A stretch of 64,000 bases of DNA from Cyanidioschyzon merolae (Eukaryota). Under the pieces are notes generated by a model. That model worked only from the letters and a program-made list of their open reading frames with translations, had not been told where the DNA came from and searched no databases. Where the stretch lies: NCBI GenBank assembly GCA_000091205.1, contig AP006498.2. One strand, given 5' to 3'. This document shows, piece by piece, positions 11,512 to 64,000 of the stretch. Position 1 is the stretch's first letter. Each line of letters starts with the position of its first letter. Both the position numbers and the translations under genes were made by a program.

Positions 11512-11626
11512 ACGATGTGCGCAGAACACGAAATAACGAAATCGTCGCCGCAAAAATCGTGAGCGGCGAACGCGTTTTGCAACAGCGCCATTTGTATTTG
11601 CGGCCAGAGTCAATGGTACGAAAAAC

Positions 11627-11790
11627 GTTTCGCAATCATTGGATAAATGAATAGCCACCTAAAGACTCATCCCAGTCTTTCTCGACCGGCCACCCACAAC
11701 TGGATTCAACTTCTTTCCGAGCAATTCCGCCTTGAGAGGTTGCCCCGTAAAGTTGGCTCTCGTCAACTCTGAGGATCTCGTCTCGAGCAC
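11627..11790 (-). ncRNA. Candidate omega-RNA-like conserved 3' non-coding segment of Fanzor copy A
   Basis: On the minus strand: 'ggggcaacctctcaaggcggaa...ggccggtcgagaaagactgggatgagtctttaggtggctattcatttatcc aatgattgcgaaac'. The blocks 'ggggcaacctc', 'ccggtc.a..aag.ctggga.g.gtc' and 'gattgcgaaac' are conserved with 47974..48197, 56040..56150, 63870..63985, 33961..34065 and, more loosely, 44255..44310. Confidence 0.35.
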
Positions 11791-32399: not shown

Positions 32400-32900
32400 T
32401 ACAGTCGTAAAAAAGTCCTAGTGCATGAACTAATATCTTGCACCGAAATCGCAGCGACAGAATTCCTCGCATCTTGCGATAGCTAAGAAGCACAGGGACG
32501 TCGATTTGTTTCTTCATTCGATGAGACTTGCTTCGGATGAAACCGTTGGAGCGTATATGGGTATTCGCGGAGCAGGGCGTCCGTTGTATGCACGGTCGAA
32601 CTCGAAGAGAACGATGGTATCATAACCTGTTCTAACTTTGATGGATACATTTGGCGGCCTCAATTTCGCTTGTAATGAAGGTTCGTATAACAGCAACAAC
32701 CACTTTTCCGAATCATAGAAGACATTTCCCTGTCGTCGGACGACGTCATTCTACTGGACGAAATAGTAATTCCCTACTCCATTTGCGTTCGAGCTTTTAC
32801 CGATTCTATTGGGCTAGAGGTGCTTTTCATTGCGCCGTACTCTCCGTGGGTCATCCCCATCGATCGATTGTTTGATATCGTGAGAAGTTATGATAGCTCC
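32400..32900 (+). mobile_element. Tc1/mariner-like relic fragment (transposase sense on +)
   Basis: The antisense ORF 32514..32699 reads 'LLYEPSLQAKLRPPNVSIKVRTGYDTIVLFEFDRAYN', homologous to 2756..2944 'LFHEPSLRENPRPPNISTAARTDDEIFLLEFDLIYN'. The 3' repeat segment follows at 33432..33767. Confidence 0.3.
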
Positions 32901-32983
32901 GCTGGGCGACTTGATGAATCATCAGCTCGCCTGATACGGGGGCACATGTCATCTTCTTCTGCAAGTCCTTCGGCTTCAGGGAA

Positions 32984-34065
32984 GGTCCTCACCTAAAGTC
33001 ATAAAAAATTGCGTTCATTGTCAAAAATAAAAATCCAAGGAATGCGATGGGGAGTGCACTTTAGAAGGTCGAGATAGAGAGCAGGCGGCGGAGCGCTTCG
33101 GCGATAGAAAAGCACAGAGAGCTGATTAAGCAGCAAATGGACAGAGGGCACGAGTTCGAGGACACCTTGCACTGGTAAGTTCCACCAGAGGCAATAAAAG
33201 CATGGAGTTCGTGAACGGAGAATTTAACGCCGCCATTAATGGCAGATGTGCGATGCTGGTGAAGAGACCCGAGGTGATTTTTTTCATATGACAAAACGTT
33301 TAGATTGATCATGGATCCCAGAATTCGGAAGAGATAATGGCTTTCAGGGAAGCGTCCATCATGAAGGACCCACCTTCAAGTTCCATCACTCATACGTCCT
33401 CTCGGATATACAGGTCGTTTCGTATGTTCTATCATGCGCCGAGTGCCTGGCGTGAACGCTCACCGTAGCGCCTATATACCGCTGAAGTAGATGCTGCACG
33501 GAGACAGAACGGGTTTGCCGTACCACTGAGGGCGTCGGCTCGAGGCGTGCTATATCCGACACGGAGCCGGACTACAAAATCATTCTGGGAGCCTGCAAAC
33601 TGTGCTGACAGACCTACTGCCTGCGGCAGCGCGATGCAATATACTAGGAGTCCACTGCGACCAGGGCGACGCCCAGATGCAGCTTTGCTGCGTCTACTCC
33701 CAGAATGAATTGCGTTCCAGACGAGCAGCTCAGGTTTCTTTAAAGAACCCACCACTGGAGGCAGCATGAAGCGCTAGCTAGCCCCGCAGACTCGTCCGGC
33801 TCGCGGGACCTTCCGCCTAGAGGGTAAATTTTCGAAGATACGGAAACTTTTCGCCATTTCAACGCTAACTATCAAGGTCGATAGAAACTGTTATCGATTT
33901 GCTAGTTAGCGGTTAGTTTCTGTTCTGTCACCCGAGGTGATGACGCAATACAGCTTTGTGAGACAGCCTCTCAGGCTCGAAGTATATTGGGATAAACTGA
34001 AACCGATAGCAGGCGACCGGTCAAAAAACCTGGGAGGGCCTGTGAGGGGGTATATATATGCACTC
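32984..34065 (+). mobile_element. Internally deleted Fanzor family-1 derivative (5' end joined to 3' end), split by an insertion of about 660 bp (33300..33960) that contains the Tc1-associated repeat
   Basis: Left end 'ggtcctcacctaaagtcataaaaaattgcgttcattgtcaaaaataaaaatcc' at 32984..33040, as in copy A. 33181..33290 encodes 'MEFVNGEFNAAINGRCAMLVKRPEV', a degenerate RuvC-III box. 33961..34065 is the conserved 3' tail 'agacagcctctcaggctcg...ccggtcaaaaaacctgggagggc'. Confidence 0.45.
33432..33767 (-). repeat. 3' repeat segment of the Tc1-like family, inserted within the Fanzor derivative
   Basis: 'GYSTPRADALSGTANPFCLRAAS' is homologous to 1971..2357 'GCTTPWADALCAMTKPFCLRA'. Confidence 0.35.
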
Positions 34066-34189
34066 TTTGGTGGCGAAACGTTTTCGCTCCACTGATCATC
34101 CACAGGTTGCTCTGCTCATGCGATTGCACGTGAGGATGCATCGTGGTTCCGCGTGATGCCCCACGCTACAGAGTCATCCGGGCGGGATG

Positions 34190-34500
34190 TGGGAGCTCGA
34201 AAGCACGTGATCGCTCCTGATTGGAAAGCATCTCATATATGCAGGGTACCAGTACGACCGGAAGTTTTCTTGTGCGTTCATAGCACTTCCAATTGGGAAG
34301 CATCTCATATATGCACGGTACCAGCAAGACAGGAAGTTTTCTTGTGCGTTCATAGCACTTCTGATTGCGAAGCATCTCATGTTTGCAGTGTACCAGTAAG
34401 ACAGGAAGTTTTCTTATGCTTCCATAGCACTCCTCATTGGGACGCATCTCACGTATGCACATGGTGCTCGAGCTGGCGGTTCCGAGCGATGCACCTCTTC
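34190..34500. repeat. Tandem repeat, 72-bp unit x about 4.3
   Basis: Unit starts at 34225, 34297, 34369 and 34441 ('gaagcatctcatatatgcacggtaccag.aagacaggaagttttcttgtgcgttcatagcacttc..attg.'). Seen in the ORF track as the reiterated peptide 'EASHICTVPARQEVFLCVHSTSDC'. Confidence 0.8.
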
Positions 34501-42107: not shown

Positions 42108-43149
42108 CAGCGAGTCAACAAGGGAGTTCAAGGCACCGTGCAGCAGCAAGTCAACCGTTTCAAGCGACGCGATGCGACTCGTGGTATCGATGATTCCTTC
42201 ATCGACGTCGTCGAGCGCTGGCGCTATATTCGTGGTGGCGGCGGCAGTGGCGGCGGCGGCTATTCGTCAACTGCCGTACGGCGTTACCGCCTCACAGGCG
42301 TGCCTCTCGAAGCTTGGACACAGAGGTAGCGGTGGTGTAGCGTGTGCGTCCGGGGAAACGGAAACGCTGACGCTTTGTGAACGCTGCTGCGGGATCGCAG
42401 TGACTGGGAGGGAGCACACGCCTCCGAGTCAGAGCACGTGCACGGGGTTGGCTAGCATAGTGCTGTGGAAGGCTGCTCGAGGCTGACAGCAGTCACCTGG
42501 GTACGAGCTCGCTGAAGAGAGTCTGAGGCAAGGCGCTTGCGGGAGTGGTGCGCTCTTGGCACAGCGATTTCACAACTGGGAAGCGAGTGCGGTAACGTCG
42601 GTGCGCGTGTTGCTAGGGCGGGGTGATGGCTGATGAGGAGGTACGTGGACCTGCGTGCCTGTGCTCCTGCTGTTTGGCATTGTGAGTGGGCGTGAACGTC
42701 GTATTTCGAGTTGACGGCACCCGGAGGTTCGCTGGATCGAGTCAGTATTCGTTAGCGAAGCAGTGCTGCGGGGTGTTGGCGTGCGATCGTGTGCGTTGTA
42801 GCAATAGCGCCGTTGTGCTAGTGACTTGCCGCGTGCATGAACCAAGCGTCCCTTCCTTGGCGGAGTACTCGCATGGTGGCCTTGGAGCTCGGAAGCGTCC
42901 CCAGAAGCAATGAAGTCCATGCTCTAAAGACTGGCAGTGTGCGCGTCTCTGGTGGCTTTTGGACAGAAGCACCGAACCTGGTCTACGCGCGAGAGAAATT
43001 AGAATGGAATACTGAACTGCATGCTCGATTCCTGCCTTGCGGATTCATTCCCGAACTTTTGTCATGTATACAGCTTCGATATCTGTAGTCCATGAAAGAG
43101 CTCTTTCGGATGCGAATGCGTCTTCGGACTCGCAATCGTCCATTTCGGA

Positions 43150-44310
43150 GTGACTCCATCGGCGCTGTGCTGCTCGAACTCAAAAAGTCACCGAAATCAA
43201 GACGATTCTCGACGCAGCAGAACGACGGTTCGTAAAATAACTGGTATCGTTATCCGACGCGCACGAACAAGCCTCCACTCTTGTCTGTTCCCTAGGTGTA
43301 GCATGCTCAGATCACGCAAGCTCCTAGTTTGCCGATCTTTCTGTTTTCAGGCAAATCGTAGAGACGGCAGTTGGCGCCGCAGGGATGGCGATCAGGAAAC
43401 TCAACGTTGTCACTTGACGGCTTGTTCACAAGATGGTGCCGAAAGCTCACTACACTTTTCATGTCTAATAATTGATTCCGTTCGAGCGACACATCCCGCT
43501 CTCTTCATGCCTATCGACGAGACTGAACTCGACAGCAGCCGCAGCAGCCGCAGCATGCTTCTGACGAGGTATGATCCCAGAGGCGTTCGTGTCTTCTGCT
43601 TCCATGGAAAAGCTTCTTGGACTCGGACGTCGATCATCGCAGCGACCGCTTCCATTTGCGAGCGGATCACCGGTTTGCACGAAGGGAGCGTAGACGGATC
43701 GAAATAGCTCGACTTGTCCCCGAGCCCGTATTTTCCTTCCGGTACTTGTTTCACCTTGGACAACACCGCGTTCCCCAAATCGTCTAAAGAATGGAGCAGC
43801 ATGCGCTTGTGCGTGCAAGGGACGGAGCACTCGCCGGCGTATTGTCCAGAACGGGCCCGTGATCGTTGGGTACGGCACCGGGTACGGAAACGGAGTAGCG
43901 CATGCTGGGCGATGCTTCTCCACTCGGAAAGGGCTTGTGCCAAGCGAGGCATTGTTCATTTATGCGCCAGGGGGCAGCGATCAGAGGAGGCATTGCGGGC
44001 GTATTGGAACACCTGGCCACAGCCAAGCGTCACCGCTGCGAATGGCGCACCCATTCTGTCTACGAAGACGGTGGAACTGGCAAGCGAAGCGCAGGTCGCA
44101 GCTTGAACCTGTTCGTCAAGTGCGCCAACAAGTACCGGAAGCGGGTGCATTGGGACGTCAAATCTGCCATCAACATCCTTCGGCAGCTGATAACGGAGCT
44201 GGAGCGACACGAGAGACCGGCATATTTCAAGCCGGATGCGCCATAGAGGAACAAAGAGCAGTCGTAGATACCGCGGGCAAAGGCTGGTGTCGTAGGTGAG
44301 AACTGGATGA
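43150..44310 (+). pseudogene. Degenerate family-2 TnpB/Fanzor-like element inside the left palindrome arm (mirrored copy at about 50241..51407, minus)
   Basis: Repeat X 43150..43707, then 'IVGYGTGYGNGV' (43859..), 'GVLEHLATAKRHRCEW' and 'VHWDVKSAINILRQ' (about 44163..44195, a degenerate NAAxNI RuvC-III box) across shifted frames. The tail 44255..44310 'gcagtcgtagataccgcgggcaaaggctggtgtcgtaggt' resembles the family-1 3' tail 'gcagtagtaggtgcccggtccatgaagactgggaggcgtccgtacgt'. Confidence 0.4.
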
Positions 44311-44637
44311 GACCCAGTATAATGATTACATATGCCCGAGTTTGTTAAGTGGAACGTTTCAATTTATTCTGAAATGGACGTAGGGCATCGATGTCCTTCA
44401 TCAAGCACCTTGTGCAGCACAGAAAATGAACCAGAATTGTTCGCTTGTGTGTCGAGGCGGCAAACTCCTCCGCACAATATCCCCGGCCGAAATGCTCTCA
44501 CACGGGCTCAGAGACATCTCTCTGGCATTGACATCCGATGCTCCAGGCTAGCTCGTACTAGGTGGCGCACTCTTCTAATACGAGACAGCAGACATGCACG
44601 TGTGTTGCACCGAGCGACAACGCGCCGGCGACGTCCT

Positions 44638-46014
44638 TCAGTAGCCCAGGTACCTCACTGGGGGTTTCTTCTTCCGACGTGTGCCGTCTGCGAAGCCGTC
44701 CCGACGATCATCGGTTTCATCGCTATCACCGCGTAGGTCGTGCACAAACCCCCGGAGGCTGGCCATCACTTTGTGGGCTTGGCGTCGCAGTTCAGCAGCG
44801 CGAAGCTGCTCGAATGCATCGTAGGTTCGCGAGCCGCTCGTTCCGACATCCCGCGGTCTACGCCGCAAGTGCTGAAACTTTTGCCATCCAGGAACCGCCT
44901 CATACCGGTGATCGCGCATAATTGGAAAGCAGTTGAAACCCTCCTCGCCGGGAAGTGGCTCCTCCGCAATAGACTCAATGGTGGGCAGTTTGATGCAGTG
45001 GTCATCCACCATCGTGGCAAAATCTACGCGTTGACTCGACAAATAATCGTCAAAGTCCAGGCTGTCAGGCGCAATGCGAAATACATTGGCAAGCTCGTCT
45101 GCGACATGCAGCCAGCCAATGTAGATGAGAAAAACAGAAAGCACGTAAATAATGTCCAGCCAGCGATAGTTTCCAATATCGATGCTGCTGGACGTTGCGC
45201 TCAATAAATTCAGATTTCCCGCGAGCAGTATGACACAAATCACGTAGATGCGCACTGTTGCGTTCACGAGCTGGCGGTACATCAGCGGAACTGGAACCCA
45301 CATGGGCACATATAAATAACCGAAATATCCGCGCACGAGCGCAAGCTGCTGCACAAGCTGAAGATGAACGAATTCCGTGATGCCGTAGCGGTGGTTCTGA
45401 TCACGCAGGCGAGAAAGCAAGTGCCCAGCCCACATGACTGGCATCGTCCACTGGGCTCTGTCTACATCATTCTCCAGCCGGTATCGCTCCTCAGGTGTGA
45501 TCAAGCCAATACGTTCCATGGCCTCAGTGGTGCGGTACGCATGATCACCGCCAAGAAAAACATCGCGAAGCACCATAGCGAACGGAATGCAGATCCACCG
45601 GACAATGAGTTGCTTCAACCGTGCAGCGCCGATAGGGTCGTTATCATCATACACGAAGGACGTCATCTCGAGAGCAATATTGTAGGCAGCGATTTGGCCA
45701 GTGCCACACATGACAACACGAACACTCCACCAACGGGAATAGATTGTGCTAGTATAAAACCCCAGCATAAAGGTAAGAATTGGCGAAAGGACACTGACAA
45801 GTGCTGCGAGAGTATTCAGGAAGGGTATCGGCCATTCTGCAACGTAGAGCTTGAGCGCTATCACGAGCACTGCGGCACCGATCCAGGAAAGAAGTTCAAA
45901 GAGCAACCGCTGGACCAATGAGCCGTACCAATGAAAGAAGACTCTAGTCCATGAAAGGGGAAATACATAGTCTTTCCCGAACGTGGCTATGGGATCCTTG
46001 TAGTAGATTGTCAT
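44638..46014 (-). CDS. Bestrophin-like (Bestrophin/RFP-TM/UPF0187 family) putative anion channel, 458 aa. Copy 1 of an identical pair
   Basis: 'LTFMLGFYTSTIYSRWWSVRV' matches the bestrophin 'F.LGFYV...RWW' motif. 'WLHVADELANVFRIAPDSLDFDDY' resembles the bestrophin 'NPFGEDDDDFE' box. Multiple TM helices. Genuine ATG (mirror of 48537). Confidence 0.7.
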   Translation of the reverse strand: MTIYYKDPIATFGKDYVFPLSWTRVFFHWYGSLVQRLLFELLSWIGAAVLVIALKLYVAEWPIPFLNTLAALVSVLSPILTFMLGFYTSTIYSRWWSVRVVMCGTGQIAAYNIALEMTSFVYDDNDPIGAARLKQLIVRWICIPFAMVLRDVFLGGDHAYRTTEAMERIGLITPEERYRLENDVDRAQWTMPVMWAGHLLSRLRDQNHRYGITEFVHLQLVQQLALVRGYFGYLYVPMWVPVPLMYRQLVNATVRIYVICVILLAGNLNLLSATSSSIDIGNYRWLDIIYVLSVFLIYIGWLHVADELANVFRIAPDSLDFDDYLSSQRVDFATMVDDHCIKLPTIESIAEEPLPGEEGFNCFPIMRDHRYEAVPGWQKFQHLRRRPRDVGTSGSRTYDAFEQLRAAELRRQAHKVMASLRGFVHDLRGDSDETDDRRDGFADGTRRKKKPPVRYLGY

Positions 46015-46353
46015 CTCTGGGAAACAAACGTGCCGCGTACCAGGTAAAGGCGTCGCTGGCCTGTGGAAACCTCTTCGGGCTCTTCAAATACGCACAAACA
46101 CCGCTTGGGTGCTTGCGCAACTCTGATTTGTGCTTTGGTCGTCGAACGGGGACTCGCTCGCTCTTGAACAGCAGCCGCACTCGAGCCGTGTGCACGTTTC
46201 CAACCTACGAAAACGCGAACTCCCGCTTCCAGCAGGTATCCTGATCTTGTTGCCTCTACGGTCAGGACGCGCAGTAAGCCTGGTTCACGTACGTACCGAC
46301 TATTTACCGGTGATAGTCGTCCGATCGCAGTGAGACCTACGGCGTCCCGTGTG

Positions 46354-47030
46354 TTTCGCAATCTGTCTGCAATAGCCGTTAGACAACCTGTTTATGGTTG
46401 CTTTGTGGCTCTGTGGCAAACACACACGCCGACACCGAACACTTTCCAAAAGTCGAACGACGCCAGCGCTGTACAGTACTGGCGAGAAGCCCGCCCTAGA
46501 CAAGAAGTCTCCAGCTGACGTACGGACGCCTCCCAGTCTTCATGGACCGGGCACCTACTACTGCTTCCAATTGTTTCTCATATAGTTCCACTTTGGGAGG
46601 TTGCCCCCACAAAATTCTCTCTTGTCAGCGCTGGAGGTCTGCTTTCCAGCACCGCACATCTCCTGATATTGATGGCGGCATTAAAGTCTCGGTTCACAAA
46701 CTCCATACGTTTCTTGCCATCACTGGTTGTACTCACTAGTGCGAGTAGCCCTCGAACTTTCGCCCTTGTTTCCATTTGCTCCTCCGTCAGCGGTCCGTAC
46801 TTTTCTATGTCTTCAGGGCTCCGCTGGCACTTTTCCATCCCGACCCTCTTAAGTACGCACCCCAGTTCATGGTGTGTATAGGACGTTCGGAACCCATCTA
46901 TCGGTATCGTAACAAAACGCTGTGCGCACTCCCTGTATGTTCTTGTCGACGGAGCTGGTACACATTCTTTTTGGGTCTTCCATCGCCCTGCTCCGTATGC
47001 CACTACGAGCCTCTGACGCTCGTCCTCCTT
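46354..47030 (-). mobile_element. Fanzor family-1 copy B: 3' half only (C-terminal about 150 aa plus conserved 3' tail), in the left palindrome arm
   Basis: ORF 46578..47123(-): '...KEDERQRLVVAYGAGRWKTQ...RFVTIPIDGFRTSYTHHELGC...SDGKKRMEFVNRDFNAAINIRRCAVLESRPPALTRENFVGATSQSGTI'. RuvC-III is intact (about 46651..46691). The RuvC-II position carries G ('IDGFRTS'). The tail 46354..46577 mirrors 47974..48197. Confidence 0.6.
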
Positions 47031-47039
47031 CATAATCCA

Positions 47040-48197
47040 TTTCCGTCTTCGATATTGTACGTGACGAAGCATGAAGATGAGAAGGAGGCGGGTCCTGCGA
47101 CGCAGAAAGTGCATGAGAACCACTTTGTCGTTGGCGCGGGCCCTGGGAACACGAATATCATGACCATCACAACACGCCGTTGTGGGGATGATGGCGTCGA
47201 CGGCAACTTACGTCAAAAAACACACGCGTGTTTTAAAGCGCTAAAGAACGAGATATTACCGAGAGTTCGGTGTGATGAATGCAAAGAAGAAAAGTGGAAC
47301 GTGGAGTGCTGGAGTGAAAAAGCACCTGGAAGCGATCAGCCAGGTGACGAGCCGAGAAGCGGACTTTAAAGCTTTTCGGAAATTCATGGAAGTTCGTGTT
47401 GCTCACTGGGATGCGCTGTGGGAGGGGCATACAAAGCCCCGGTGGGCTCGTCTGCGAATGAATCTATACTGTGGCAAGCAGCGCGCATTCGCGAACTTTT
47501 TCAACCAGCTGAGCGCCGTGAAGGAGGACGAGCGTCAGAGGCTCGTAGTGGCATACGGAGCAGGGCGATGGAAGACCCAAAAAGAATGTGTACCAGCTCC
47601 GTCGACAAGAACATACAGGGAGTGCGCACAGCGTTTTGTTACGATACCGATAGATGGGTTCCGAACGTCCTATACACACCATGAACTGGGGTGCGTACTT
47701 AAGAGGGTCGGGATGGAAAAGTGCCAGCGGAGCCCTGAAGACATAGAAAAGTACGGACCGCTGACGGAGGAGCAAATGGAAACAAGGGCGAAAGTTCGAG
47801 GGCTACTCGCACTAGTGAGTACAACCAGTGATGGCAAGAAACGTATGGAGTTTGTGAACCGAGACTTTAATGCCGCCATCAATATCAGGAGATGTGCGGT
47901 GCTGGAAAGCAGACCTCCAGCGCTGACAAGAGAGAATTTTGTGGGGGCAACCTCCCAAAGTGGAACTATATGAGAAACAATTGGAAGCAGTAGTAGGTGC
48001 CCGGTCCATGAAGACTGGGAGGCGTCCGTACGTCAGCTGGAGACTTCTTGTCTAGGGCGGGCTTCTCGCCAGTACTGTACAGCGCTGGCGTCGTTCGACT
48101 TTTGGAAAGTGTTCGGTGTCGGCGTGTGTGTTTGCCACAGAGCCACAAAGCAACCATAAACAGGTTGTCTAACGGCTATTGCAGACAGATTGCGAAA
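47040..48197 (+). mobile_element. Fanzor family-1 copy B-prime: 5'-truncated pseudogene (RuvC-I region through C-terminus plus 3' tail), spanning the palindrome spacer and right arm
   Basis: 46776-frame: '...HEDEKEAGPATQKVHENHFVVGAGPGNTNIMTITT', where RuvC-I Asp is replaced ('VGAGPG' versus 'VGLDTG' in copy A, about 47118..47145). It then shifts into the 47272..47973 frame: '...TWSAGVKKHLEAISQ...MEFVNRDFNAAINI...'. The region upstream of 47040 is the inverted arm, so the N-terminus is absent. The 3' tail ends with 'gattgcgaaac' at about 48187..48197. Confidence 0.6.
47974..48197 (+). ncRNA. Candidate omega-RNA-like conserved 3' segment of Fanzor B-prime (mirror copy at 46354..46577, minus)
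   Basis: Directly follows the stop at 47973: 'gtgggggcaacctcccaaagtggaac...agcagtagtaggtgcccggtccatgaagactgggaggcgtccgtacgt...ggctattgcagacagattgcgaaac'. It shares the conserved blocks of copy A and of copies at 56040..56150 and 63870..63985, and carries an extra insert of about 150 nt relative to A. Confidence 0.35.
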
Positions 48198-48536
48198 CAC
48201 ACGGGACGCCGTAGGTCTCACTGCGATCGGACGACTATCACCGGTAAATAGTCGGTACGTACGTGAACCAGGCTTACTGCGCGTCCTGACCGTAGAGGCA
48301 ACAAGATCAGGATACCTGCTGGAAGCGGGAGTTCGCGTTTTCGTAGGTTGGAAACGTGCACACGGCTCGAGTGCGGCTGCTGTTCAAGAGCGAGCGAGTC
48401 CCCGTTCGACGACCAAAGCACAAATCAGAGTTGCGCAAGCACCCAAGCGGTGTTTGTGCGTATTTGAAGAGCCCGAAGAGGTTTCCACAGGCCAGCGACG
48501 CCTTTACCTGGTACGCGGCACGTTTGTTTCCCAGAG

Positions 48537-49913
48537 ATGACAATCTACTACAAGGATCCCATAGCCACGTTCGGGAAAGACTATGTATTTCCCCTTTCAT
48601 GGACTAGAGTCTTCTTTCATTGGTACGGCTCATTGGTCCAGCGGTTGCTCTTTGAACTTCTTTCCTGGATCGGTGCCGCAGTGCTCGTGATAGCGCTCAA
48701 GCTCTACGTTGCAGAATGGCCGATACCCTTCCTGAATACTCTCGCAGCACTTGTCAGTGTCCTTTCGCCAATTCTTACCTTTATGCTGGGGTTTTATACT
48801 AGCACAATCTATTCCCGTTGGTGGAGTGTTCGTGTTGTCATGTGTGGCACTGGCCAAATCGCTGCCTACAATATTGCTCTCGAGATGACGTCCTTCGTGT
48901 ATGATGATAACGACCCTATCGGCGCTGCACGGTTGAAGCAACTCATTGTCCGGTGGATCTGCATTCCGTTCGCTATGGTGCTTCGCGATGTTTTTCTTGG
49001 CGGTGATCATGCGTACCGCACCACTGAGGCCATGGAACGTATTGGCTTGATCACACCTGAGGAGCGATACCGGCTGGAGAATGATGTAGACAGAGCCCAG
49101 TGGACGATGCCAGTCATGTGGGCTGGGCACTTGCTTTCTCGCCTGCGTGATCAGAACCACCGCTACGGCATCACGGAATTCGTTCATCTTCAGCTTGTGC
49201 AGCAGCTTGCGCTCGTGCGCGGATATTTCGGTTATTTATATGTGCCCATGTGGGTTCCAGTTCCGCTGATGTACCGCCAGCTCGTGAACGCAACAGTGCG
49301 CATCTACGTGATTTGTGTCATACTGCTCGCGGGAAATCTGAATTTATTGAGCGCAACGTCCAGCAGCATCGATATTGGAAACTATCGCTGGCTGGACATT
49401 ATTTACGTGCTTTCTGTTTTTCTCATCTACATTGGCTGGCTGCATGTCGCAGACGAGCTTGCCAATGTATTTCGCATTGCGCCTGACAGCCTGGACTTTG
49501 ACGATTATTTGTCGAGTCAACGCGTAGATTTTGCCACGATGGTGGATGACCACTGCATCAAACTGCCCACCATTGAGTCTATTGCGGAGGAGCCACTTCC
49601 CGGCGAGGAGGGTTTCAACTGCTTTCCAATTATGCGCGATCACCGGTATGAGGCGGTTCCTGGATGGCAAAAGTTTCAGCACTTGCGGCGTAGACCGCGG
49701 GATGTCGGAACGAGCGGCTCGCGAACCTACGATGCATTCGAGCAGCTTCGCGCTGCTGAACTGCGACGCCAAGCCCACAAAGTGATGGCCAGCCTCCGGG
49801 GGTTTGTGCACGACCTACGCGGTGATAGCGATGAAACCGATGATCGTCGGGACGGCTTCGCAGACGGCACACGTCGGAAGAAGAAACCCCCAGTGAGGTA
49901 CCTGGGCTACTGA
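48537..49913 (+). CDS. Bestrophin-like protein, copy 2 (identical to 44638..46014)
   Basis: Identical 458-aa translation. Genuine ATG at 48537. Confidence 0.7.
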   Translation: MTIYYKDPIATFGKDYVFPLSWTRVFFHWYGSLVQRLLFELLSWIGAAVLVIALKLYVAEWPIPFLNTLAALVSVLSPILTFMLGFYTSTIYSRWWSVRVVMCGTGQIAAYNIALEMTSFVYDDNDPIGAARLKQLIVRWICIPFAMVLRDVFLGGDHAYRTTEAMERIGLITPEERYRLENDVDRAQWTMPVMWAGHLLSRLRDQNHRYGITEFVHLQLVQQLALVRGYFGYLYVPMWVPVPLMYRQLVNATVRIYVICVILLAGNLNLLSATSSSIDIGNYRWLDIIYVLSVFLIYIGWLHVADELANVFRIAPDSLDFDDYLSSQRVDFATMVDDHCIKLPTIESIAEEPLPGEEGFNCFPIMRDHRYEAVPGWQKFQHLRRRPRDVGTSGSRTYDAFEQLRAAELRRQAHKVMASLRGFVHDLRGDSDETDDRRDGFADGTRRKKKPPVRYLGY

Positions 49914-52372
49914 AGGACGTCGCCGGCGCGTTGTCGCTCGGTGCAACACACGTGCATGTCTGCTGTCTCGTATTAGAAGAGTGCGCCACCTAGTACGAGC
50001 TAGCCTGGAGCATCGGATGTCAATGCCAGAGAGATGTCTCTGAGCCCGTGTGAGAGCATTTCGGCCGGGGATATTGTGCGGAGGAGTTTGCCGCCTCGAC
50101 ACACAAGCGAACAATTCTGGTTCATTTTCTGTGCTGCACAAGGTGCTTGATGAAGGACATCGATGCCCTACGTCCATTTCAGAATAAATTGAAACGTTCC
50201 ACTTAACAAACTCGGGCATATGTAATCATTATACTGGGTCTCATCCAGTTCTCACCTACGACACCAGCCTTTGCCCGCGGTATCTACGACTGCTCTTTGT
50301 TCCTCTATGGCGCATCCGGCTTGAAATATGCCGGTCTCTCGTGTCGCTCCAGCTCCGTTATCAGCTGCCGAAGGATGTTGATGGCAGATTTGACGTCCCA
50401 ATGCACCCGCTTCCGGTACTTGTTGGCGCACTTGACGAACAGGTTCAAGCTGCGACCTGCGCTTCGCTTGCCAGTTCCACCGTCTTCGTAGACAGAATGG
50501 GTGCGCCATTCGCAGCGGTGACGCTTGGCTGTGGCCAGGTGTTCCAATACGCCCGCAATGCCTCCTCTGATCGCTGCCCCCTGGCGCATAAATGAACAAT
50601 GCCTCGCTTGGCACAAGCCCTTTCCGAGTGGAGAAGCATCGCCCAGCATGCGCTACTCCGTTTCCGTACCCGGTGCCGTACCCAACGATCACGGGCCCGT
50701 TCTGGACAATACGCCGGCGAGTGCTCCGTCCCTTGCACGCACAAGCGCATGCTGCTCCATTCTTTAGACGATTTGGGGAACGCGGTGTTGTCCAAGGTGA
50801 AACAAGTACCGGAAGGAAAATACGGGCTCGGGGACAAGTCGAGCTATTTCGATCCGTCTACGCTCCCTTCGTGCAAACCGGTGATCCGCTCGCAAATGGA
50901 AGCGGTCGCTGCGATGATCGACGTCCGAGTCCAAGAAGCTTTTCCATGGAAGCAGAAGACACGAACGCCTCTGGGATCATACCTCGTCAGAAGCATGCTG
51001 CTGCTGCGGCTGCTGCGGCTGCTGTCGAGTTCAGTCTCGTCGATAGGCATGAAGAGAGCGGGATGTGTCGCTCGAACGGAATCAATTATTAGACATGAAA
51101 AGTGTAGTGAGCTTTCGGCACCATCTTGTGAACAAGCCGTCAAGTGACAACGTTGAGTTTCCTGATCGCCATCCCTGCGGCGCCAACTGCCGTCTCTACG
51201 ATTTGCCTGAAAACAGAAAGATCGGCAAACTAGGAGCTTGCGTGATCTGAGCATGCTACACCTAGGGAACAGACAAGAGTGGAGGCTTGTTCGTGCGCGT
51301 CGGATAACGATACCAGTTATTTTACGAACCGTCGTTCTGCTGCGTCGAGAATCGTCTTGATTTCGGTGACTTTTTGAGTTCGAGCAGCACAGCGCCGATG
51401 GAGTCACTCCGAAATGGACGATTGCGAGTCCGAAGACGCATTCGCATCCGAAAGAGCTCTTTCATGGACTACAGATATCGAAGCTGTATACATGACAAAA
51501 GTTCGGGAATGAATCCGCAAGGCAGGAATCGAGCATGCAGTTCAGTATTCCATTCTAATCTGATAGCCCCGTCGGCGACGAGGATCTCAGAGTCGGATTG
51601 CACCTGCACTGATTCCGGGGATCTTGGTGTGCATGATGGAAATCTTTGGAAAATGTTCTGCGAATGATGGAACACGGGAAGTGTTGGACGCTTCCACCGT
51701 GCGCCCAGCTCTTTCTGATGCCTCCGAAAATGGAATTTTCGGAGCGCTCTCGGACACTAGTCTTGTGTGCGGTGCTTTGCACTCGATGGACGCAAAGAGT
51801 ACCGAAGCGAATCCTCACGAAGTTACGGATTCGCGCTCATTCAAGCAATCCCGGAGACATACCATAGAGTTGACATCGACGTTGCGCTGCCTCGGACCTT
51901 ACCAGGGATTGGTCACAGCACAAACGTCGGCGTCGCTCATGCTGCAGCGCCGGCGCTCTAGGCTCACTGTGGGCCCCCCTATCAAGCACTTGGCCCCGGA
52001 GGATTGCACGAAGCGACGGTTATCTCCAAAGAAAAGCGCGCGTGGTTGTTGTTGGGGCTTGAAGATCTGTTGCCGCGGAATGGACGCTCTCTCTGATGCC
52101 GTCAACCCTCGCGCAGTCAAGGATTCCTTCGAGTGTGTAAACGAATCTACACACCCCTGTGGGAAATCGCTCGTGCGAGAGAAGATGTACTTTTAGGGAC
52201 AATAATGTATGTCTTGTACGTCCGTGCGCGTGGCCTCGACAGCAGCGCAGCACCTGCACCTTGCAGTCGTTTCGAGCGCGCAGCCAGTGCTTGTTGTAAA
52301 CGACCTAGTCTAGGGTTGCTGGGGCGGTCCTCGCGTCAGGCTGTCCGCCCGACACACCTTGCAATAGGCACC

Positions 52373-53815
52373 ATGCCGATTATGTACATGGATCCCGTGG
52401 CGAACCTGGGGAAGGACTACGTTCTTCCCCTTTCCTGGGTGCGCATATTTCTCTACTGGCACGGAAGCCTCTTGCAGCGCTTGCTGTTCGAAGTGTGCAT
52501 CCTGTTCGGTCTCGCTGCTTTTATTATTGCCATGAAGCTTTACGTTGCAGAGTGGCCACGCTTCCTTCTAGAAGTCTTTGCAAATATTGTCAACATTCTT
52601 TCAGGCGTGTTGACGCTCCTGCTGGGGTTCTATGCCAGCACCATCTACAGCCGCTGGTGGTACACGCGCACGAACATGTTCGGGACCGCGCAAGGTGGAG
52701 TGTACAACTGCGGTTTCATGTTGAACGCGCTCGTCTACGACGATGAGAATCCGGAACTTTGCGCCCGCTTTAAGCAGCGGTTTCTCCGTTGGATGAACCT
52801 CGCTTTCGGAATCATGCTCATGGACGTCACCTCTGGTGGATCGCATCTCTTCGAGTCCTTTGATAGCATGGAACGCATCGGTTTGGTGACCCCCGAGGAG
52901 CGCTATCGCCTGGAGCATGACGTGGAGCGTGTGCGCTTCACGCTGCCCATTATGTGGGCGGGTCATATGCTTACGCGCCTCCGGGATAATAATCACCAGT
53001 TTCACATTACGGATCGGGTACACATGCAGCTGTCGATCGAGTTGGCTTACTTGCGGCAGGGTCTCGGTGGATGCTATCTCATGAAGAACACACCGGTGCC
53101 GCTTCTCTATGTGCAGTTCGTGGAGGTTGCTGTCCGAATGTACGTTATTAGCATGATTCTGCTTGTAGGTGATTTGAACTTGCTGTCTGGAACCTTTCAA
53201 GAACGCGGCAACGATAGATGGGTCGATCTCGTCTACATCGCAGCGCTGTTTTTCATCTACGTCGGCTGGCTTCATGTAGCGGAGGAACTTGCAAACCCCT
53301 TCCGAATAGCCCCGGATGGACTCGATTTGGATGACCTTCTCTCCGGACAACGATGCGATGTGATGACCATGTCCGACTCGACGCGTCAACGTTTACCGAA
53401 ACCCGAGGTGATTCAGGAAGCGCCGCTTCCAGGAGAGCAGGGCTGGTATTTGCCGATTATAACCCGAGATCACAGCTACGAGCCTGTTCCCTACTGGTAC
53501 AGTTTTTGGTACAATCTCATCCGTCGCCGAAAGTGCAGCACCGCGCCTTCACCTCATTCCATTATTTGGGGATTCTATCCCGAGAAACAGCCGCTGCTTA
53601 CCGAGCCAGAAAAGAAACATGCAGCATCAAATCCATCGGCGTGGTCCAACGTAGTGCATGTACACCCGGGAGCTTCACAACATTGGAACGTGAGTCACCG
53701 CAACGACGGGCCAGCGCCCATGGCCTCACATTGCCCAAGCGGGCTGGTCAGTTCGGGTTTCGGCGGACTTGGTGTGGATAGCAGCAGTGCTGACGGCGGC
53801 GGCAGTGTATTATGA
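52373..53815 (+). CDS. Bestrophin-like paralog (about 480 aa) with a Gly/Ser-rich C-terminal tail
   Basis: 'MPIMYMDPVANLGKDYVLPLSWVRIFLYWHGSLLQRLLFE...LLLGFYASTIYSRWWYTRT...WLHVAEELANPFRIAPDGLDLDDL' is collinear with the 44638..46014 protein. The ORF-track ORF starts at 52133. The ATG at 52373 aligns with the paralog N-termini. Confidence 0.65.
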   Translation: MPIMYMDPVANLGKDYVLPLSWVRIFLYWHGSLLQRLLFEVCILFGLAAFIIAMKLYVAEWPRFLLEVFANIVNILSGVLTLLLGFYASTIYSRWWYTRTNMFGTAQGGVYNCGFMLNALVYDDENPELCARFKQRFLRWMNLAFGIMLMDVTSGGSHLFESFDSMERIGLVTPEERYRLEHDVERVRFTLPIMWAGHMLTRLRDNNHQFHITDRVHMQLSIELAYLRQGLGGCYLMKNTPVPLLYVQFVEVAVRMYVISMILLVGDLNLLSGTFQERGNDRWVDLVYIAALFFIYVGWLHVAEELANPFRIAPDGLDLDDLLSGQRCDVMTMSDSTRQRLPKPEVIQEAPLPGEQGWYLPIITRDHSYEPVPYWYSFWYNLIRRRKCSTAPSPHSIIWGFYPEKQPLLTEPEKKHAASNPSAWSNVVHVHPGASQHWNVSHRNDGPAPMASHCPSGLVSSGFGGLGVDSSSADGGGSVL

Positions 53816-55567: not shown

Positions 55568-56150
55568 GTTTTTCACCTAAATTGTGTTCCACTCCTCCGG
55601 TGCGTGTCATCAAATGCGTGTTCGCGGTTTATAGCGGATTCGTTCGAAGTAGGTTCATTTCCAAAAATAAAAATCTAAGGATCAGGTATCGACATGCAAG
55701 GCGGGGATCCAGGAGGACCCTCATCACTGGCTGCCTGAGTAAAAAACGAAACAAATCCTCTTCTCGCCGATCATCGAGCGAAGAAGAGCAAGTGACCAGG
55801 AAGAAAAAGGCGAAGAAGATGACGATGAGAGATCGGCGAGAAAATGTATTTGGTCAACGGAACGATGACGTCCCTTTGGTGGCAAAGAGGGCTCGCGTTC
55901 TGACAACTATTTTAAAGGTGAGCTCAACCAGAGGCAATAAACGCATAGAGTTCGTGAACCGAGACTTCAACGCCGCCATCAATATCATGAGATGCACGGT
56001 GCTGGAGACGAGACCCGAGGAGCTGAGGCGATCCAAGTTTGTGAGGCAGCCTCTCAGGCTCGTTCTGTGCATGAATAAACCTAAATCGATAGCAGGGTCG
56101 CGGTCGAACAGGGCAGGGACGCGTCTACGGGTGGGTATTCACGCACCCTG
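55568..56150 (+). mobile_element. Internally deleted Fanzor family-1 derivative C (about 0.58 kb: left end plus last about 60 codons plus 3' tail)
   Basis: Left end 'tcacctaaa...catttccaaaaataaaaatctaagga' (55571..55670). 'RARVLTTILKVSSTRGNKRIEFVNRDFNAAINIMRCTVLETRPEELRRSKFV' at about 55900..56045 has an intact RuvC-III box. Tail 56040..56150 'gtgaggcagcctctcaggctcg...gcggtcgaacagggcagggacgcgtctacgg gtgggtattcac'. The 216-aa ORF-track ORF 55531..56181 is not a host gene. Confidence 0.5.
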
Positions 56151-58281
56151 CTTGCTCGTGGGACTTTGTTTCTTTCATTGACGATAACAGTGACGATAAT
56201 CACGGACAGAATATCCACCTGTGTGCACTTTGTAAAGCTCCTGAAACCTAGGCCACAGTCGAGTAACGAAGCTCATTGTCTACCGTTCAGGGTAGATCAA
56301 GAGACAGACTTCGGGGTCGGCGTGGACCCGGGAGCTGCAGGATGTCACGCCCGATTTTTAACCTCTGAATGAGGAGGCCGGCGCCAAAGACCTACTCGGA
56401 AGGAAGCTGACCCTGTTCAAGCTTTCCAGGGCAGGGGATTATCGAGATTCGGGCATAACGTTCGCCAGCAGGGATACCAGCAAGTGGAACGACGGCGTCC
56501 GGGCCCGACTCTCGACGCTCTGGACACCGTATCGAGCAGACGGGGGCATGCTTTGCACGCTTGATTCATAGATCATATGAGCCTCAAAACGTCTCCTGCG
56601 GGCGGTCTTTGGCAGCAGTACACACGGGCGCGCGGGGTCGGAAACCGATTCGGTTGAACGGAGGCAGCCATCGTGTATGCGCCAACTTGTCAGATGTGTT
56701 CGAACGAGAAATGATCGACACGTCGCGCTGTTTCGCGGAAGCCTAAGGCGCTGGACGTGGTTTAACGCGCATGAATGCGCTCCTACTCTTCGACCAGAGC
56801 GTGCAACGAGTGCAGGAACCGATCCTCAACGATACCCCAGCCCTGAGTTCGGGACGGCGTGCACGCATCCCGAGCACAGGTGCATGCTGAAACTGGTAGC
56901 AAAGAAGAGACGGAAATAAAGTTGGATGCTCGAGCTGGTGTACGGTAAGCTGACTGTGTGTCAGATGGCGAGCGAGTCGCAAGTGCGACGCGTGCTACAA
57001 TCTGAGTCCACCGCCATCCATGAGAGAAAGCAACTTCTGCACCGATATCTCAAAGCCTTGAAAAGCGTACGGAAATGTCTCGTGCCTCCGAAGAGTTCGG
57101 TGGCTTTGTGTGGCGCGAGCTTTCGGGAATTATTTCGTATCCTATCCATGCATTGTGCTGAAACACAGAAGAGTATTTATAAAAAATCAGGGCCAGGAGC
57201 GAGGGGGCGGCCTTCGTTTCTCGCCCGGAGCAAGGCTCTGGTATGGTACGATTCAGCTACCGAACGACATTGGTGCACCGTACACATACATCGTCAATGA
57301 TTTTCCTCGGCAACTGATACACCATTATTTGAGACGACGAATATAGAACAGAGTCAAATTGATGGATCAAAGCAGGTGAGCGGGGGCATAGACCTTGCGT
57401 TTCCGCAGACGGATTCCGGATGATGCCGCTTGTGTGATTTTTTCGTTGACAAGTCGCCCGCAGGGGACACGAACCTCCAAGTTCCCACAGAGAGGACACT
57501 TTGAGGCCAGTGCTGGACCGCACGGCCTGCAAGACCTGTGTTCGCTCCATACCCCTGTAGTATCTCCTATGGACGTGCTTTCCACGACTTATTCTGTCCA
57601 AACGAGCGTTTGCCCACAAAGATCTGGTCCATCAAAGTTGAGTTCAAGGCACAAGCGCAAGTAAAGCCAATTTTGGGCCCTGTACAATATGCAGGTGGCC
57701 TTCACAGCATACGCTTCGTTCCTCGTTTACGACGCGGCGAACGAGTGCTTCCGCGGAGGCGACCACGCACACAACCCCTGAAACTGAGCAGCTACAAACT
57801 GCATTAGTGGACCTGGAAGACCTGTTTCTCCTGCTTTGTATTCGTCTCGTCATCGAGCCCAGCGTATTCAGTAAACTTCCGTGCAAGTCACGGTTTACGT
57901 GCAGGTTTTCTTCGTAGACTCCGCCTTGTCCTGGAGAGTTTACGCTCGATTACGAGCAGCCTCGTAGGTAAACTTCGAAACAATTCGCCATTTACGTGCA
58001 GATGCCTATCCAGATGCTGCGACGTCCTGCTGAAATCACTCTCGTAGACGTGCAGTTTCGTGCAGGCCGCCCCTAGTTCTGTTCGAACTCGCGCGTCCAG
58101 CAGCGAGCCTCGTTGCTGAGCGCTGCGCTCGGCACCGAATGCCTCTGCGGCTTGCACATGCTCGCTCAGAAGCGTTCGTGTTGCACTGGGGGGTTCATCG
58201 CAGCGTACGCCAAGTCACTGTGACCAGATCATAACGTTTCGGCTTCCGCTACGCGGCTTATACGGTGAGTTCGTGCGCCGG

Positions 58282-60892: not shown

Positions 60893-62275
60893 TCAGAATC
60901 CGTAGTACCGGATCCTTTCGGGAGGTCCGGTCCAACATCGGGTGGTGCCACGTAGTGACGTGTTGCCCTGCAGTCCGATGCTTTGGGCCCAGTCCGTCTG
61001 CGTCGGAGCTGTGGTATCGTCGGTTGCGAACGTCTCCTCATCCGAGAGCAGGCGTTGGCGCACCCGCTGGAAAAAGTCGTATGTCTTTGCATGGCCGTCT
61101 TGTCGACTTGCTTTGACGGTCCGAATATACTCCTTGTACTTGTTCCAGCCTGGGACCGCCTCGTAAGCGTGATCACGCCACACGAACGGACAATTCCAGT
61201 TCGGATCGCCCGGTAGGGGCTCGTCGTTGATGGAATCCACTGTGGGCAAGCGGATACTGTTGTCGTCGACCATAGTGGCGTGGTCCGCTCGCTGACTCGA
61301 GAGATAATCGTCAAAATCGAGGCCATCTGGGGCTATTCGGTACGGATTTGCGAGCTCGTCTGCAACGTGCAACCAACCAATATAAATGAAGAAGACGCTC
61401 ACAATGTAGACCATATCGGTCCAACTGTAGTTGGCGGAATCCGTCCCCGAGCTGGTGGCACCCAAAAGCTGCAGGTTCCCAGCAAGCAGGACGACAACGA
61501 GAATATAGATTCGTACAGCGGCACTCACAAGCTGCCGGTACATAAGAGGCACTGGCACTGTCACAAAAACGTACATGCTTCCGAGGCCTTGACGAAGGCT
61601 TGCCAACTGCTGTGAGAGCTGCAAGTGGACCCAATGCGTCACTCCGTAGTTCGGCTCGTGGTCTCGCAGGCGCGTAAACGTGTGTCCCGCCCACATCAGA
61701 GGCAGCGTGAAACGAACTCGGTCCACGTCGTGCTCAATGCGTTGGCGCTCCTCTGCCGTCATCATGCCGAGCTGCTCCAGGGAATCAAAGGAGTTGTACA
61801 GGTGCGTTCCATCGGTTATAATCTCACGCAACACGAGCGCAAACGCGAGGTTGCACCAACGCACAATTCGCTGTTTGAGACGTGCAGCTGTTATCGGGTC
61901 CTTGTCGCTGTAAATAAACTGAGTCATCTCCATGGCGATGTTGTAGGCGGCCATCTGCGCGGTGCCACACATGGAGACGCGCGCGTCCCACCAGCGCGAG
62001 TATATCGTGCTCGTGTAAAAACCCAGCATAAACGTGAGAATTGGAGATAGCACGTTCGCCAAAATCGCCAAAACAAGGAGAAACGCATGAGTCCACGTCG
62101 CAACGTACAGCTTGAGCGCGATCACGAGCGCCGCCAGCGCTAGCCATAAGATTATTTCGAACAGCAGCCGCTGCATCAGAGAACCGTGCCAGTAAAAAAA
62201 GAGCCGCAACCATGACAGGGGCAGAACATAGTCTTTCCCGAAAGTGGCAACGGGGTCTTTGTACAGGATGGTCAT
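60893..62275 (-). CDS. Bestrophin-like paralog (about 460 aa)
   Basis: 'MTILYKDPVATFGKDYVLPLSWLRLFFYWHGSLMQRLLFE...LTFMLGFYTSTIYSRWWDARV...WLHVADELANPYRIAPDGLDFDDY'. The start was taken at the ATG (MTILYK) aligned with the other paralogs. The ORF-track ORF extends to 62302 from a TTG. Confidence 0.65.
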   Translation of the reverse strand: MTILYKDPVATFGKDYVLPLSWLRLFFYWHGSLMQRLLFEIILWLALAALVIALKLYVATWTHAFLLVLAILANVLSPILTFMLGFYTSTIYSRWWDARVSMCGTAQMAAYNIAMEMTQFIYSDKDPITAARLKQRIVRWCNLAFALVLREIITDGTHLYNSFDSLEQLGMMTAEERQRIEHDVDRVRFTLPLMWAGHTFTRLRDHEPNYGVTHWVHLQLSQQLASLRQGLGSMYVFVTVPVPLMYRQLVSAAVRIYILVVVLLAGNLQLLGATSSGTDSANYSWTDMVYIVSVFFIYIGWLHVADELANPYRIAPDGLDFDDYLSSQRADHATMVDDNSIRLPTVDSINDEPLPGDPNWNCPFVWRDHAYEAVPGWNKYKEYIRTVKASRQDGHAKTYDFFQRVRQRLLSDEETFATDDTTAPTQTDWAQSIGLQGNTSLRGTTRCWTGPPERIRYYGF

Positions 62276-63049
62276 GGACGCAGTTTGTGGTCCGGCGCAC
62301 AAGGCAAGCCGCCACGCGTCCGCGCAGGCAACAACGTGCTCACGGGGAATACTGGCGTGTCGGTGCCGAGCCTGCGCGCGGCACTAGCGCCCCAGTCCAA
62401 TATGTCCATAAGATCTACTTGATTCACTAGATGTCAAGTTAAGGACAGGTATGAGACTGCTCCCAGGGGCACCCATCCGGATGCTACCGCTGATTAAGCG
62501 ACGCGTTCCGGTGTTCACGGGTGCATGGCTCGTCGAGCGGAACCCCTTTTCCCAAGGTCAGCGAATGCACTGCACAGCGCTTGGCACTTGCGCCTCGAGA
62601 CAGTTAGGCAGTTATCGGAGCGCTTGAGGCAACTTGGGGATCGCCAGCGGGGGCCAGCGTGCCACGACTGAACTTGGTGCGGCCGGCTGACTCGCCTATC
62701 GCCTCCGCCCACTGCCGGGTTCGGCATGGAGCCGAGGATGCTCGACCTTTCGCACTGCGCGGGTTCGAGATTTGTTTTATTCGGGTATTTGAACTGAAAT
62801 TTATTCCAGACCAGCTGATTCCACTCGAATGCTTTTCTGCAGTGTATGGCAGGAGATCCAAATCACGATGCAACGTACCGTATAGATCGTAGACGAATTG
62901 CATGCAGGATACATGTATGACTGAACAGCGCAGAGAAGAATGCGTTCGTACTTCATGTCAGTCATACGATGGTACCGTGATGGTTGAGGAACGCTGAAAG
63001 ATCTAAGTAGACGCGCTTCGCGCCAAAATCCGATATTTTTACAGACTGT

Positions 63050-63499: not shown

Positions 63500-63985
63500 C
63501 CGCATAAACAAGAGTATTCATTTTCAAGAAAAAACTATCGAAAGGAAAGTTTTGGGAACGAAAATCGGGGATACCACAAGGCCGTCATCGCGGAGTTCGA
63601 CAGCGAAACGAAAAAATTCTCCTCTCGTCGATCATCGAGCGAGGAAGAGCAAGCGACGAAGGTGTCAATGATACGCGAGAAAAGGTGTTTCCCCGACGGG
63701 ACGACGACGATACTGTATTGGAACTGAGGCGCAACTTCGAGGACATGCTCGATTGCTGAGTTCCATCAGCGTCAATACACGGACGGAGTTCGTGAACCGA
63801 GCCCTTAACAGTGCCATCAATACCAGACGACATGCGGTGCTCCAGAAGAAACCTGAGGAGATGAAGGGATACAAGTTTGTCGCACAGCCTCACAGGCTCG
63901 AAATATGTAGGAATAAACAGATACCGACAGCAGGTGTCCGGTCAAAAGGGGCTGGGAGGCGTCTGCGCGTTGGGATTCATTTACC
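63500..63985 (+). mobile_element. Internally deleted Fanzor family-1 derivative D (degenerate), reaching the window edge
   Basis: Collinear with derivative C: 'cgaaaaaattctcctctcgtcgatcatcgagcgaggaagagcaagcgac', a degraded RuvC-III box 'EFVNRALNSAINTRR', and the tail 'tttgtcgcacagcctcacaggctcg...gtccggtcaaaaggggctgggaggcgtctgcgcgttgggattcatttaccc'. The last block matches copy A 'ggctattcatttatcc'. Confidence 0.45.
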
Positions 63986-64000
63986 CGAGCGAGCATCGAC

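Follow-up and report, generated by a model that had tools for sequence, protein, structure and literature searches.

That Fanzor1 nucleases use an omega RNA encoded at the 3' end of their element is already known, and this general picture is unchanged by the analysis presented here. The Spizellomyces omega RNA consists of a 75-nucleotide (nt) conserved region, reaching from the stop codon to the right end of the element, followed by 14-15 variable nt, and the Guillardia omega RNA overlaps 17 codons (PMC10432273). In the solved Fanzor1 RNAs, the guide is preceded by an initial stem-loop and by one to three others, and the motif of the Parasitella parasitica enzyme, PpFz1, is 5'-ATN (PMC11423790). 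A Fanzor1 element of Cyanidioschyzon merolae, CMe-1A, was described as a ~3-kb transposon without inverted repeats, present in ~150 copies that are ~80% identical to their consensus; a separate element, TE-N2_CMe, is identical to the 635 bp at its start (Bao and Jurka 2013, PMC3627910). That paper predates omega RNAs and describes neither a 3' structure nor two tail types, and our literature search found no omega RNA described for the cyanidiophyte Fanzor1 family. Here, we examine the 3' end of one Fanzor1 copy, copy B, in a 64,000-nt stretch of Cyanidioschyzon merolae DNA (contig AP006498.2), the whole of which we call the window. An earlier note on the window had singled out positions 47974-48197 on the plus strand as a conserved non-coding block and candidate omega/guide-RNA scaffold.

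We interpret this region as the 3' terminal part of a Fanzor1-only transposon of the CMe-1A kind, in a copy that is dead; ~48037-48130 is probably, though by no means certainly, an omega-RNA scaffold. The scaffold proposal finds partial support, for this structured 3' segment in copy B's family, but not for the full extent from 47974 to 48197, two blocks of which are coding. In our model, 47974-48055 is the frameshifted Fanzor1 C-terminus, and ~48037-48130, comprising two hairpins (SL1 and SL2), a single strand and a terminal hairpin (SL3), would encode the scaffold bound by Fanzor1. The variable DNA from ~48131 would be transcribed as the guide, which, as in the TnpB and Fanzor systems that have been tested, would direct cleavage at sites with a short motif beside the guide match. 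The terminal hairpin may double as a DNA end signal for transposition. We infer transcription, protein binding, guide use and cleavage from the characterised Fanzor1 systems. The features of copy B to which the model refers are as follows.

47943..47973 (+): frameshift of copy B; an extra G in the G-run 47943-47947 leads to a premature TGA at 47971-47973
47945..48055 (+): actual C-terminal codons of copy B once the frame is corrected (...GQPPKVELYEKQLEAVVGARSMKTGRRPYVSWRLLV), closed by TAG at 48053-48055; holds blocks 1 and 2 of the earlier note
48037..48055 (+): SL1, a weak 4-bp hairpin in the fold, AGAC (48041-48044)/GTCT (48050-48053), which takes in the first base of the stop codon
48056..48070 (+): SL2, GGCGGG-CTT-CTCGCC, directly 3' of the stop; its four basal pairs are near invariant
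48071..48082 (+): conserved single strand, AGTACTGTACAG in copy B (ACTACTGTACAC in the family); its last bases form the foot of SL3
48078..48130 (+): SL3, the long terminal hairpin, from the fold and the covariance model match (48037-48124); the element's right end coincides with its 3' foot
48131..48150 (+): first flanking bases (tttgccacagagccacaaag), where similarity among ~50 copies is at background; putative guide start by analogy
48174..48198 (+): look-alike "terminal block" of copy B (ggctattgcagacagattgcgaaac), flanking DNA outside its element
46421..46514 (-): mirror of 48037-48130 in the other arm of an inverted duplication, covariance model match 46427-46514; not independent

This arrangement resembles the omega RNAs of SpuFz1, GtFz1 and PpFz1 (Saito et al. 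2023, PMC10432273; Xu et al. 2024, PMC11423790) in that a structured segment of ~75-95 nt lies at or overlaps the 3' end of the open reading frame (ORF) and reaches the right end, with variable sequence next to it and stem-loops between the ORF end and the guide. The AT(C/A) found 5' of the left end in most contexts, a candidate motif, also recalls the ATN of PpFz1. Unlike those scaffolds, the segment has no sequence similarity to any of the three; unlike Spu-1, the element shows no 30-nt inverted repeats; and the predicted terminal hairpin is unusually long (~20 bp) and variable compared to the tested Fanzor1 scaffolds. With CMe-1A, the element shares a Cyanidiophyceae host, a multicopy state at ~2.7-3.3 kb with copies ~70-80% alike, a Fanzor1 ORF as its only ORF, and the lack of terminal inverted repeats. 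Its ~650-nt 5' module, which also occurs solo, is likened to the module shared by CMe-1A and TE-N2_CMe on the basis of the described architecture. The TnpB omega/right-end RNA of IS200/IS605 elements is similar in that the scaffold overlaps both the nuclease 3' end and the right-end hairpin, with the flank as guide, and IS200/IS605 elements also have end hairpins, no inverted repeats and a position after a short fixed motif. Unlike them, the element described here has a eukaryotic host, a protein of ~700 rather than ~400 amino acids, and no TnpA transposase.

The three sequence blocks on which the scaffold proposal was based were found at or near the places given for them, but blocks 1 and 2 are coding. 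Both are in the nuclease frame in copies A, C, D and E, where it is open through the tail (F-V-x-Q-P-L-R/K-x-E...G-x-R-S-K-x-x-G-x-R-L), and both match the C-terminus of intact relatives, which ends ...NFVGQPLKVELYEKKLEAVVGGRSKKTGRRLHVSWRRFV (also given as ...GRSKKTGRRLHVSWRRFV) before the stop. Block 1 ('ttgtg.gg.cagcctc.ca.g') translates as FVGQPLK and block 2 ('ccggtc.a.aag.ctggga.g.gtc') as GRSKKTGRRL; among 46 related genomic copies, about a dozen keep the ORF intact to the same stop. In copy B, the ORF end that had been placed at 47973 is a false stop caused by a 1-nt insertion, and the true stop is the TAG listed above. Column 15 of the alignment is occupied by window copy B alone, and the tblastn match in copy B splits into residues 1-36 at 47839-47946 and residues 36-71 at 47945-48052. 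The frameshift is not a sequencing error, since the same G insertion is present in a metagenome contig that is 99.3% identical to the window (L031; JGI). Conservation of the tail, put by the earlier note at no less than that of the coding part, is below that of the coding core in the five window copies: mean pairwise identity falls from 0.68-0.75 for the RuvC-III part to 0.58-0.65 for blocks 1-2, 0.42-0.54 for block 3, and 0.24-0.28 beyond. A practical lesson is that a conserved block after the stop in decayed transposon copies may be the true C-terminus behind a frameshift.

The real 3' non-coding segment is delimited by copy B's family, for which 80 related loci yielded 50 non-redundant 3' ends. 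Across these 50 copies, conservation stays at 0.8-0.9 through the end of the ORF and ~70 nt past the stop, then falls abruptly to background, with a flank diversity of 0.7 past the boundary. The non-coding block itself is ~48056-48130, and the structured segment at 48037-48130 comprises the 16 last coding bases, the stop and 75 nt. After the stop, the consensus reads GGCG-GGTTTCT-CGCC, then ACTACTGTACAC, then a long hairpin that exists in several versions (GTTCGActtTCGAAC; CGTTTTTCttttGAAAGGCG), with unrelated perfect hairpins at the same place in two loci (L009 and L005). Diversity is 0.15-0.18 in the single-strand segment and 0.15-0.21 with the base of SL2 included, compared to 0.27 at third codon positions, suggesting constraint beyond shared ancestry. 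The single strand is complementary to CAGTAGT in the codons for A-V-V (a possible long-range helix, CAGTAGT/ACTACTG). The excess of third-position diversity over positions 1-2 is ~2.0 over most of the ORF and 1.22 in the last 50 codons, which is suggestive, but no proof, of nucleotide-level constraint that overlaps a weakly constrained C-terminal extension.

Covariation was assessed with a covariance model from 14 copies, which gave 53 matches and an alignment of 50 distinct sequences. Within the window, the model matched only copy B (48037-48124, plus strand) and its mirror (46427-46514, minus strand), with no match in copies A, C, D and E. Among the 50 sequences, 81% of cells form a pair, compared to 75.4% in shuffled alignments (reached by 0 of 500 shuffles), and compensatory change is found in 18 of 29 pairs, compared to 12.0 when shuffled (reached by 1 of 500). 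The covariation score of 0.172 compares with 0.108 for shuffled alignments (0 of 500) and 0.04-0.08 with the partners slid. This signal sits in SL3; SL1 is paired in 82.5% of cells across the 50 copies. The alignment was fitted to the model, which favors structure, and two alignment-free checks were therefore added. For the final 62 nt, the alignment-free folding z score had a median of -1.62, with 43% of copies below -2, compared to a median of 0.09 and 2% below -2 in the flanks. In 36 of 46 copies, the sense strand folds more stably than the antisense, and there are 202 G·U/U·G combinations compared to 55 A·C/C·A. Copy B itself folds at -33.8 kcal/mol in the sense and -17.9 kcal/mol in the antisense orientation. 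The terminal hairpin is therefore kept through compensatory changes, with a sense-strand bias. Within the 14 most similar copies, covariation was not above shuffles, as variation among them is too low, and RNAalifold on the raw MAFFT alignment found only 3 pairs, with SL2 as the single helix, because the hairpin arms are misaligned. A covariation check of the sort proposed in the earlier note thus gave a signal for SL3 in copy B's family, but no significant one for SL1, SL2 or the second tail type described below.

In addition to the use of a fitted alignment, several observations weigh against an omega-RNA scaffold at ~48037-48130. Transposon copies are alike by descent, so conservation alone is weak proof. 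All of the window copies are dead (pseudogenes), and copy B has Gly at the position of the first RuvC catalytic Asp (47139-47141; VVGAGPGNTN vs VVGADPGNTN in the family). Across the 50 copies, covariation is not significant for SL1, SL2 or the long-range helix, the single-sequence fold of copy B is not exceptional (z = -1.41), and Rfam gave no match at the gathering score across the whole window and none at E<=1 in 47800-48300. The weaker codon signature at the end of the ORF may simply stem from low constraint on a C-terminal extension. Finally, a strand-specific terminal hairpin is also compatible with a signal for single-stranded-DNA transposition.

This last point underlies the main rival explanation, in which the hairpins at both ends are a DNA-level cis signal for a single-stranded-DNA transposase, in the style of IS200/IS605 or Helitron, and there is no guide RNA. 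It would account for the lack of terminal inverted repeats (in the second tail type here and in CMe-1A; PMC3627910), for the combination of a left hairpin (GCGC-TCAGTGA-GCGC) and a right hairpin with insertion after AT(C/A), for a strand bias that suits a top-strand DNA hairpin, and for the retention of the 3' end in deletion derivatives. We nevertheless consider it unlikely, given that no Y1/HUH transposase is present in or beside the elements, which carry the Fanzor ORF only, that Helitron hallmarks are missing, and that all tested Fanzor1 have an omega RNA at this position (PMC10432273, PMC11423790). RNA and DNA roles are also compatible with each other. As identities for the element, we rejected a Helitron (no conserved CTRR after the hairpin, 5' TC absent in several left-end contexts, no Rep/helicase ORF) and an IS200/IS605-like element proper, which would have hairpins at both ends as here, but the 2.65-kb element has no TnpA and consists of the Fanzor ORF only. 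Alternatively, the block could have no function of its own, serving the Fanzor mRNA as 3' untranslated region or terminator or forming the end of a decaying repeat, with copies alike by ancestry. The death of every window copy, the absence of covariation in SL1 and SL2, and a post-stop primary-sequence diversity that overall (0.38) exceeds that at synonymous sites (0.27) are in keeping with this idea. It is very unlikely in our estimation, because pairing is kept by compensatory changes, unrelated hairpin sequences occupy the same position, parts of the block are below synonymous-site diversity, and the flank controls give no fold signal. The scaffold reading of ~48037-48130 remains the one that we prefer.

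The literal form of the earlier proposal, in which all of 47974-48197 is scaffold, the right end is 'gattgcgaaac', and guides begin at 48198 and, on the minus strand, at 11626, draws on the recurrence of the blocks in all copies and on an 11-mer, GATTGCGAAAC, common to copies A and B. We regard it as extremely improbable, because blocks 1-2 are coding, copy B's family ends at ~48130, and the 11-mer match, which 22 of 2000 shuffles attain, is unsupported by copies C, D and E; the proposed right end also falls inside the conserved part of the second tail type. This type is represented by copies A, C, D and E and by 7 copies in related loci, and its tails in the window are as follows.

11609..11751 (-): copy A tail; blocks 1-2 at 11751-11662, TAG at 11659-11661
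34048..34096 (+): copy C tail, second type, ending ...CCACTGAT at 34096
56133..56182 (+): copy D tail, second type, ending ...TTCATTGAC at 56182
63971..64000 (+): copy E tail, second type, ending at the window end

The second-type consensus is ...GGnTAT...AnCC...G(C/T)GAAAC-GTTTTTCG-YCAYTGAC, and copies diverge only past CAYTGAC. In copies A, C and D, and in 8 further copies, conservation therefore goes on for 18 nt past the GAAAC that had been taken as the right end. Copy A continues after its stop with GGCTATTCATTTATCC (11641-11656), GATTGCGAAAC (11627-11637) and a conserved end, ...GTTTTTCGTACCATTGAC, that finishes at 11609; the bases from 11626 downwards that had been read as a guide ('gtttttcgtaccattgac') are element sequence. 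For copy B, the proposed right end lies ~45-67 nt beyond the family boundary, and the supposed guide start at 48198, where GAAAC in fact ends (the coordinates given were one off), is in the flank. Block 3 is present in A, C, D and E, but not in B, which has only the 11-mer and a 7-mer. B's terminal block shows no similarity to C, D and E and none to A after GAAAC. The possibility that it is left over from a right end of the second type was rejected as weak on the strength of the same shuffle result and the lack of likeness after GAAAC.

In the second type, covariation in the candidate hairpins (GGnTAT...AnCC; CGAAA...TTTCG) was not above shuffles or slid controls, and no convincing terminal inverted repeats were found, the one 27-nt pair (70% complementary) occurring in copy C alone. 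In copy D (56174-56182) and two related loci (L038, ~10790; L002, ~8130), the ORF is open through the whole tail and its stop is the TGA of CAYTGAC, one base from the element end. Copies A, C, L015b and L061b stop ~50 nt earlier, directly after ...RRL.

The core of the type-I element is ~2.65 kb, its sole ORF is Fanzor, and its left end opens with the hairpin GCGC-TCAGTGA-GCGC (for example, L006 ~4820-4845, L011 ~965-990 and L028 ~2930-2955). AT(C/A) precedes the left end in most independent contexts; several of these contexts are repeats, and one unique context has CCA. By analogy with the 5'-ATN of the nearest solved Fanzor1, AT(C/A) is a candidate target-adjacent motif. The ~650-nt module often lies at the 5' side of the element, in either orientation, and solo copies also occur. 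One solo copy (33279-33929) interrupts copy C. A 12-bp direct repeat, ACCCGAGGTGAT, borders it on both sides (33267-33278 and 33930-33941), suggesting that it inserted in the manner of a retroposon. As a repeat with a T-run at one end, the module is found in the window at 33279-33929 (+) and 1907-2547 (-), and it abuts the left ends of many elements in L001-L080. A broader possibility, quite unlikely as we see it, is that two Fanzor1 sublineages with unrelated 3' ends, and perhaps orthogonal scaffolds, ride on IS200/IS605-like elements that have end hairpins and no inverted repeats, sit after AT(C/A), and lack a transposase of their own. If this is true, a single terminal hairpin would be both the transposition end and the guide-proximal stem of the omega RNA, and the family would offer a tractable case for how Fanzor-only elements move and persist.

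The assignment of the protein to Fanzor1 agrees with the proposal that the nuclease belongs to the TnpB/Fanzor kind. A search with reconstructed copy A found 167 relatives, and a library-wide profile search found 1,602, many of them 600-700 amino acids long. A profile of 30 full-length relatives matches the Parasitella parasitica Fanzor1 structure (PpFz1; PDB 9cf0) at E=1.5e-20, Spizellomyces punctatus SpuFz1 (8gkh) at 4.9e-12 and Guillardia theta GtFz1 (9cer) at 0.004, and the catalytic motifs DPG(R), DEFRT and NRDxNAA line up between the profile and the solved Fanzor1. On the basis of these sequence comparisons, the family of the window copies is Fanzor1. The Pfam family Cas12f1-like_TNB was matched by 4 of the 30 relatives; Pfam gave no match for reconstructed copy A, the upstream "X" segment or the best relatives. 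A PDB search with a single sequence likewise gave no match, and only the profile built from distant relatives reached Fanzor1. For the alignment of the close family, AlphaFold2 gave a mean predicted local distance difference test score (pLDDT) of 44, too poor for use. The element is multicopy, with 376 related stretches in metagenome contigs and five copies in the window, and has sharp boundaries. The five independent window copies are as follows.

11609-~13300 (-): copy A
47036-48130 (+): copy B
33042-34096 (+): copy C
55917-56182 (+): copy D
63606-64000 (+): copy E

Each of these copies is damaged in its own way. Copy A has stops in frame. Copy B is truncated at its 5' side at 47036, in addition to the frameshift in its 3' part; another frameshift is seen near 47230-47272. 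The observation that some copies have lost most of the ORF is correct for C, D and E: copies C and E are internal-deletion derivatives in which a 1-kb upstream segment and the final 250-400 nt remain, and copy D has only its 3' end left. Survival of the 3' end in deletion derivatives agrees with a cis requirement, at the level of either RNA or DNA. The ~1-kb segment upstream of the second-type Fanzor ORF, the one kept in copies C and E, is found at 14837-13828 (-), 32301-33033 (+), 62814-63555 (+) and 3376-2560 (-); part of its translation looks transposase-like by eye, and Pfam gave no match to it.

Six separate copies had been counted in the window, but those at 46354..46577 (-) and 47974..48197 (+) are the two arms of one duplication, flanks included. 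Self-comparison of the window revealed an inverted duplication with arms at 42998-47032 and 47519-51559 that are 100% identical, ~4 kb each, separated by a 486-nt spacer and centered inside Fanzor copy B. This leaves five independent copies and a single observation for copy B. Only the left arm is collinear with contig L031, and that contig holds the 5' 2.3 kb of the element, which the window lacks. The right arm, in which 47974-48197 lies, is therefore either the product of a real fold-back rearrangement or an artefact of assembly.

If the scaffold reading is true, it provides the first concrete omega-RNA prediction for a cyanidiophyte red-algal Fanzor1, including the limits of the scaffold, the likely start of the guide and a candidate motif (ATC/ATN). 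Cyanidiophytes grow in hot, acidic conditions and have tiny, genetically tractable genomes. The ~50 diverged copies represent a natural mutational scan of a Fanzor scaffold. As both the family and the mechanism are already known, the interest of the prediction is modest.

The remainder of the window carries long intron-free ORFs for proteins with ankyrin/armadillo repeats, CBF/Mak21, an inositol-phosphate synthase and bestrophins. The inositol-phosphate synthase is 100% identical to a metagenome protein and has further relatives at 73-74%; its best named relative is from Cyanidium caldarium (62%), followed by other red algae. One bestrophin-like gene is doubled by the inverted duplication, and two members of the bestrophin-like cluster at 44638-46014 (-), 48537-49913 (+), 52133-53815 (+) and ~60893-62302 (-) belong to the duplicated arms. 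In one bestrophin-like gene, the 176 nt at the N-terminal end are 73% identical to 62100-62275. Three tandem 72-nt units that are 82-100% identical occupy 34220-34435, ~125 nt past the 3' end of copy C.

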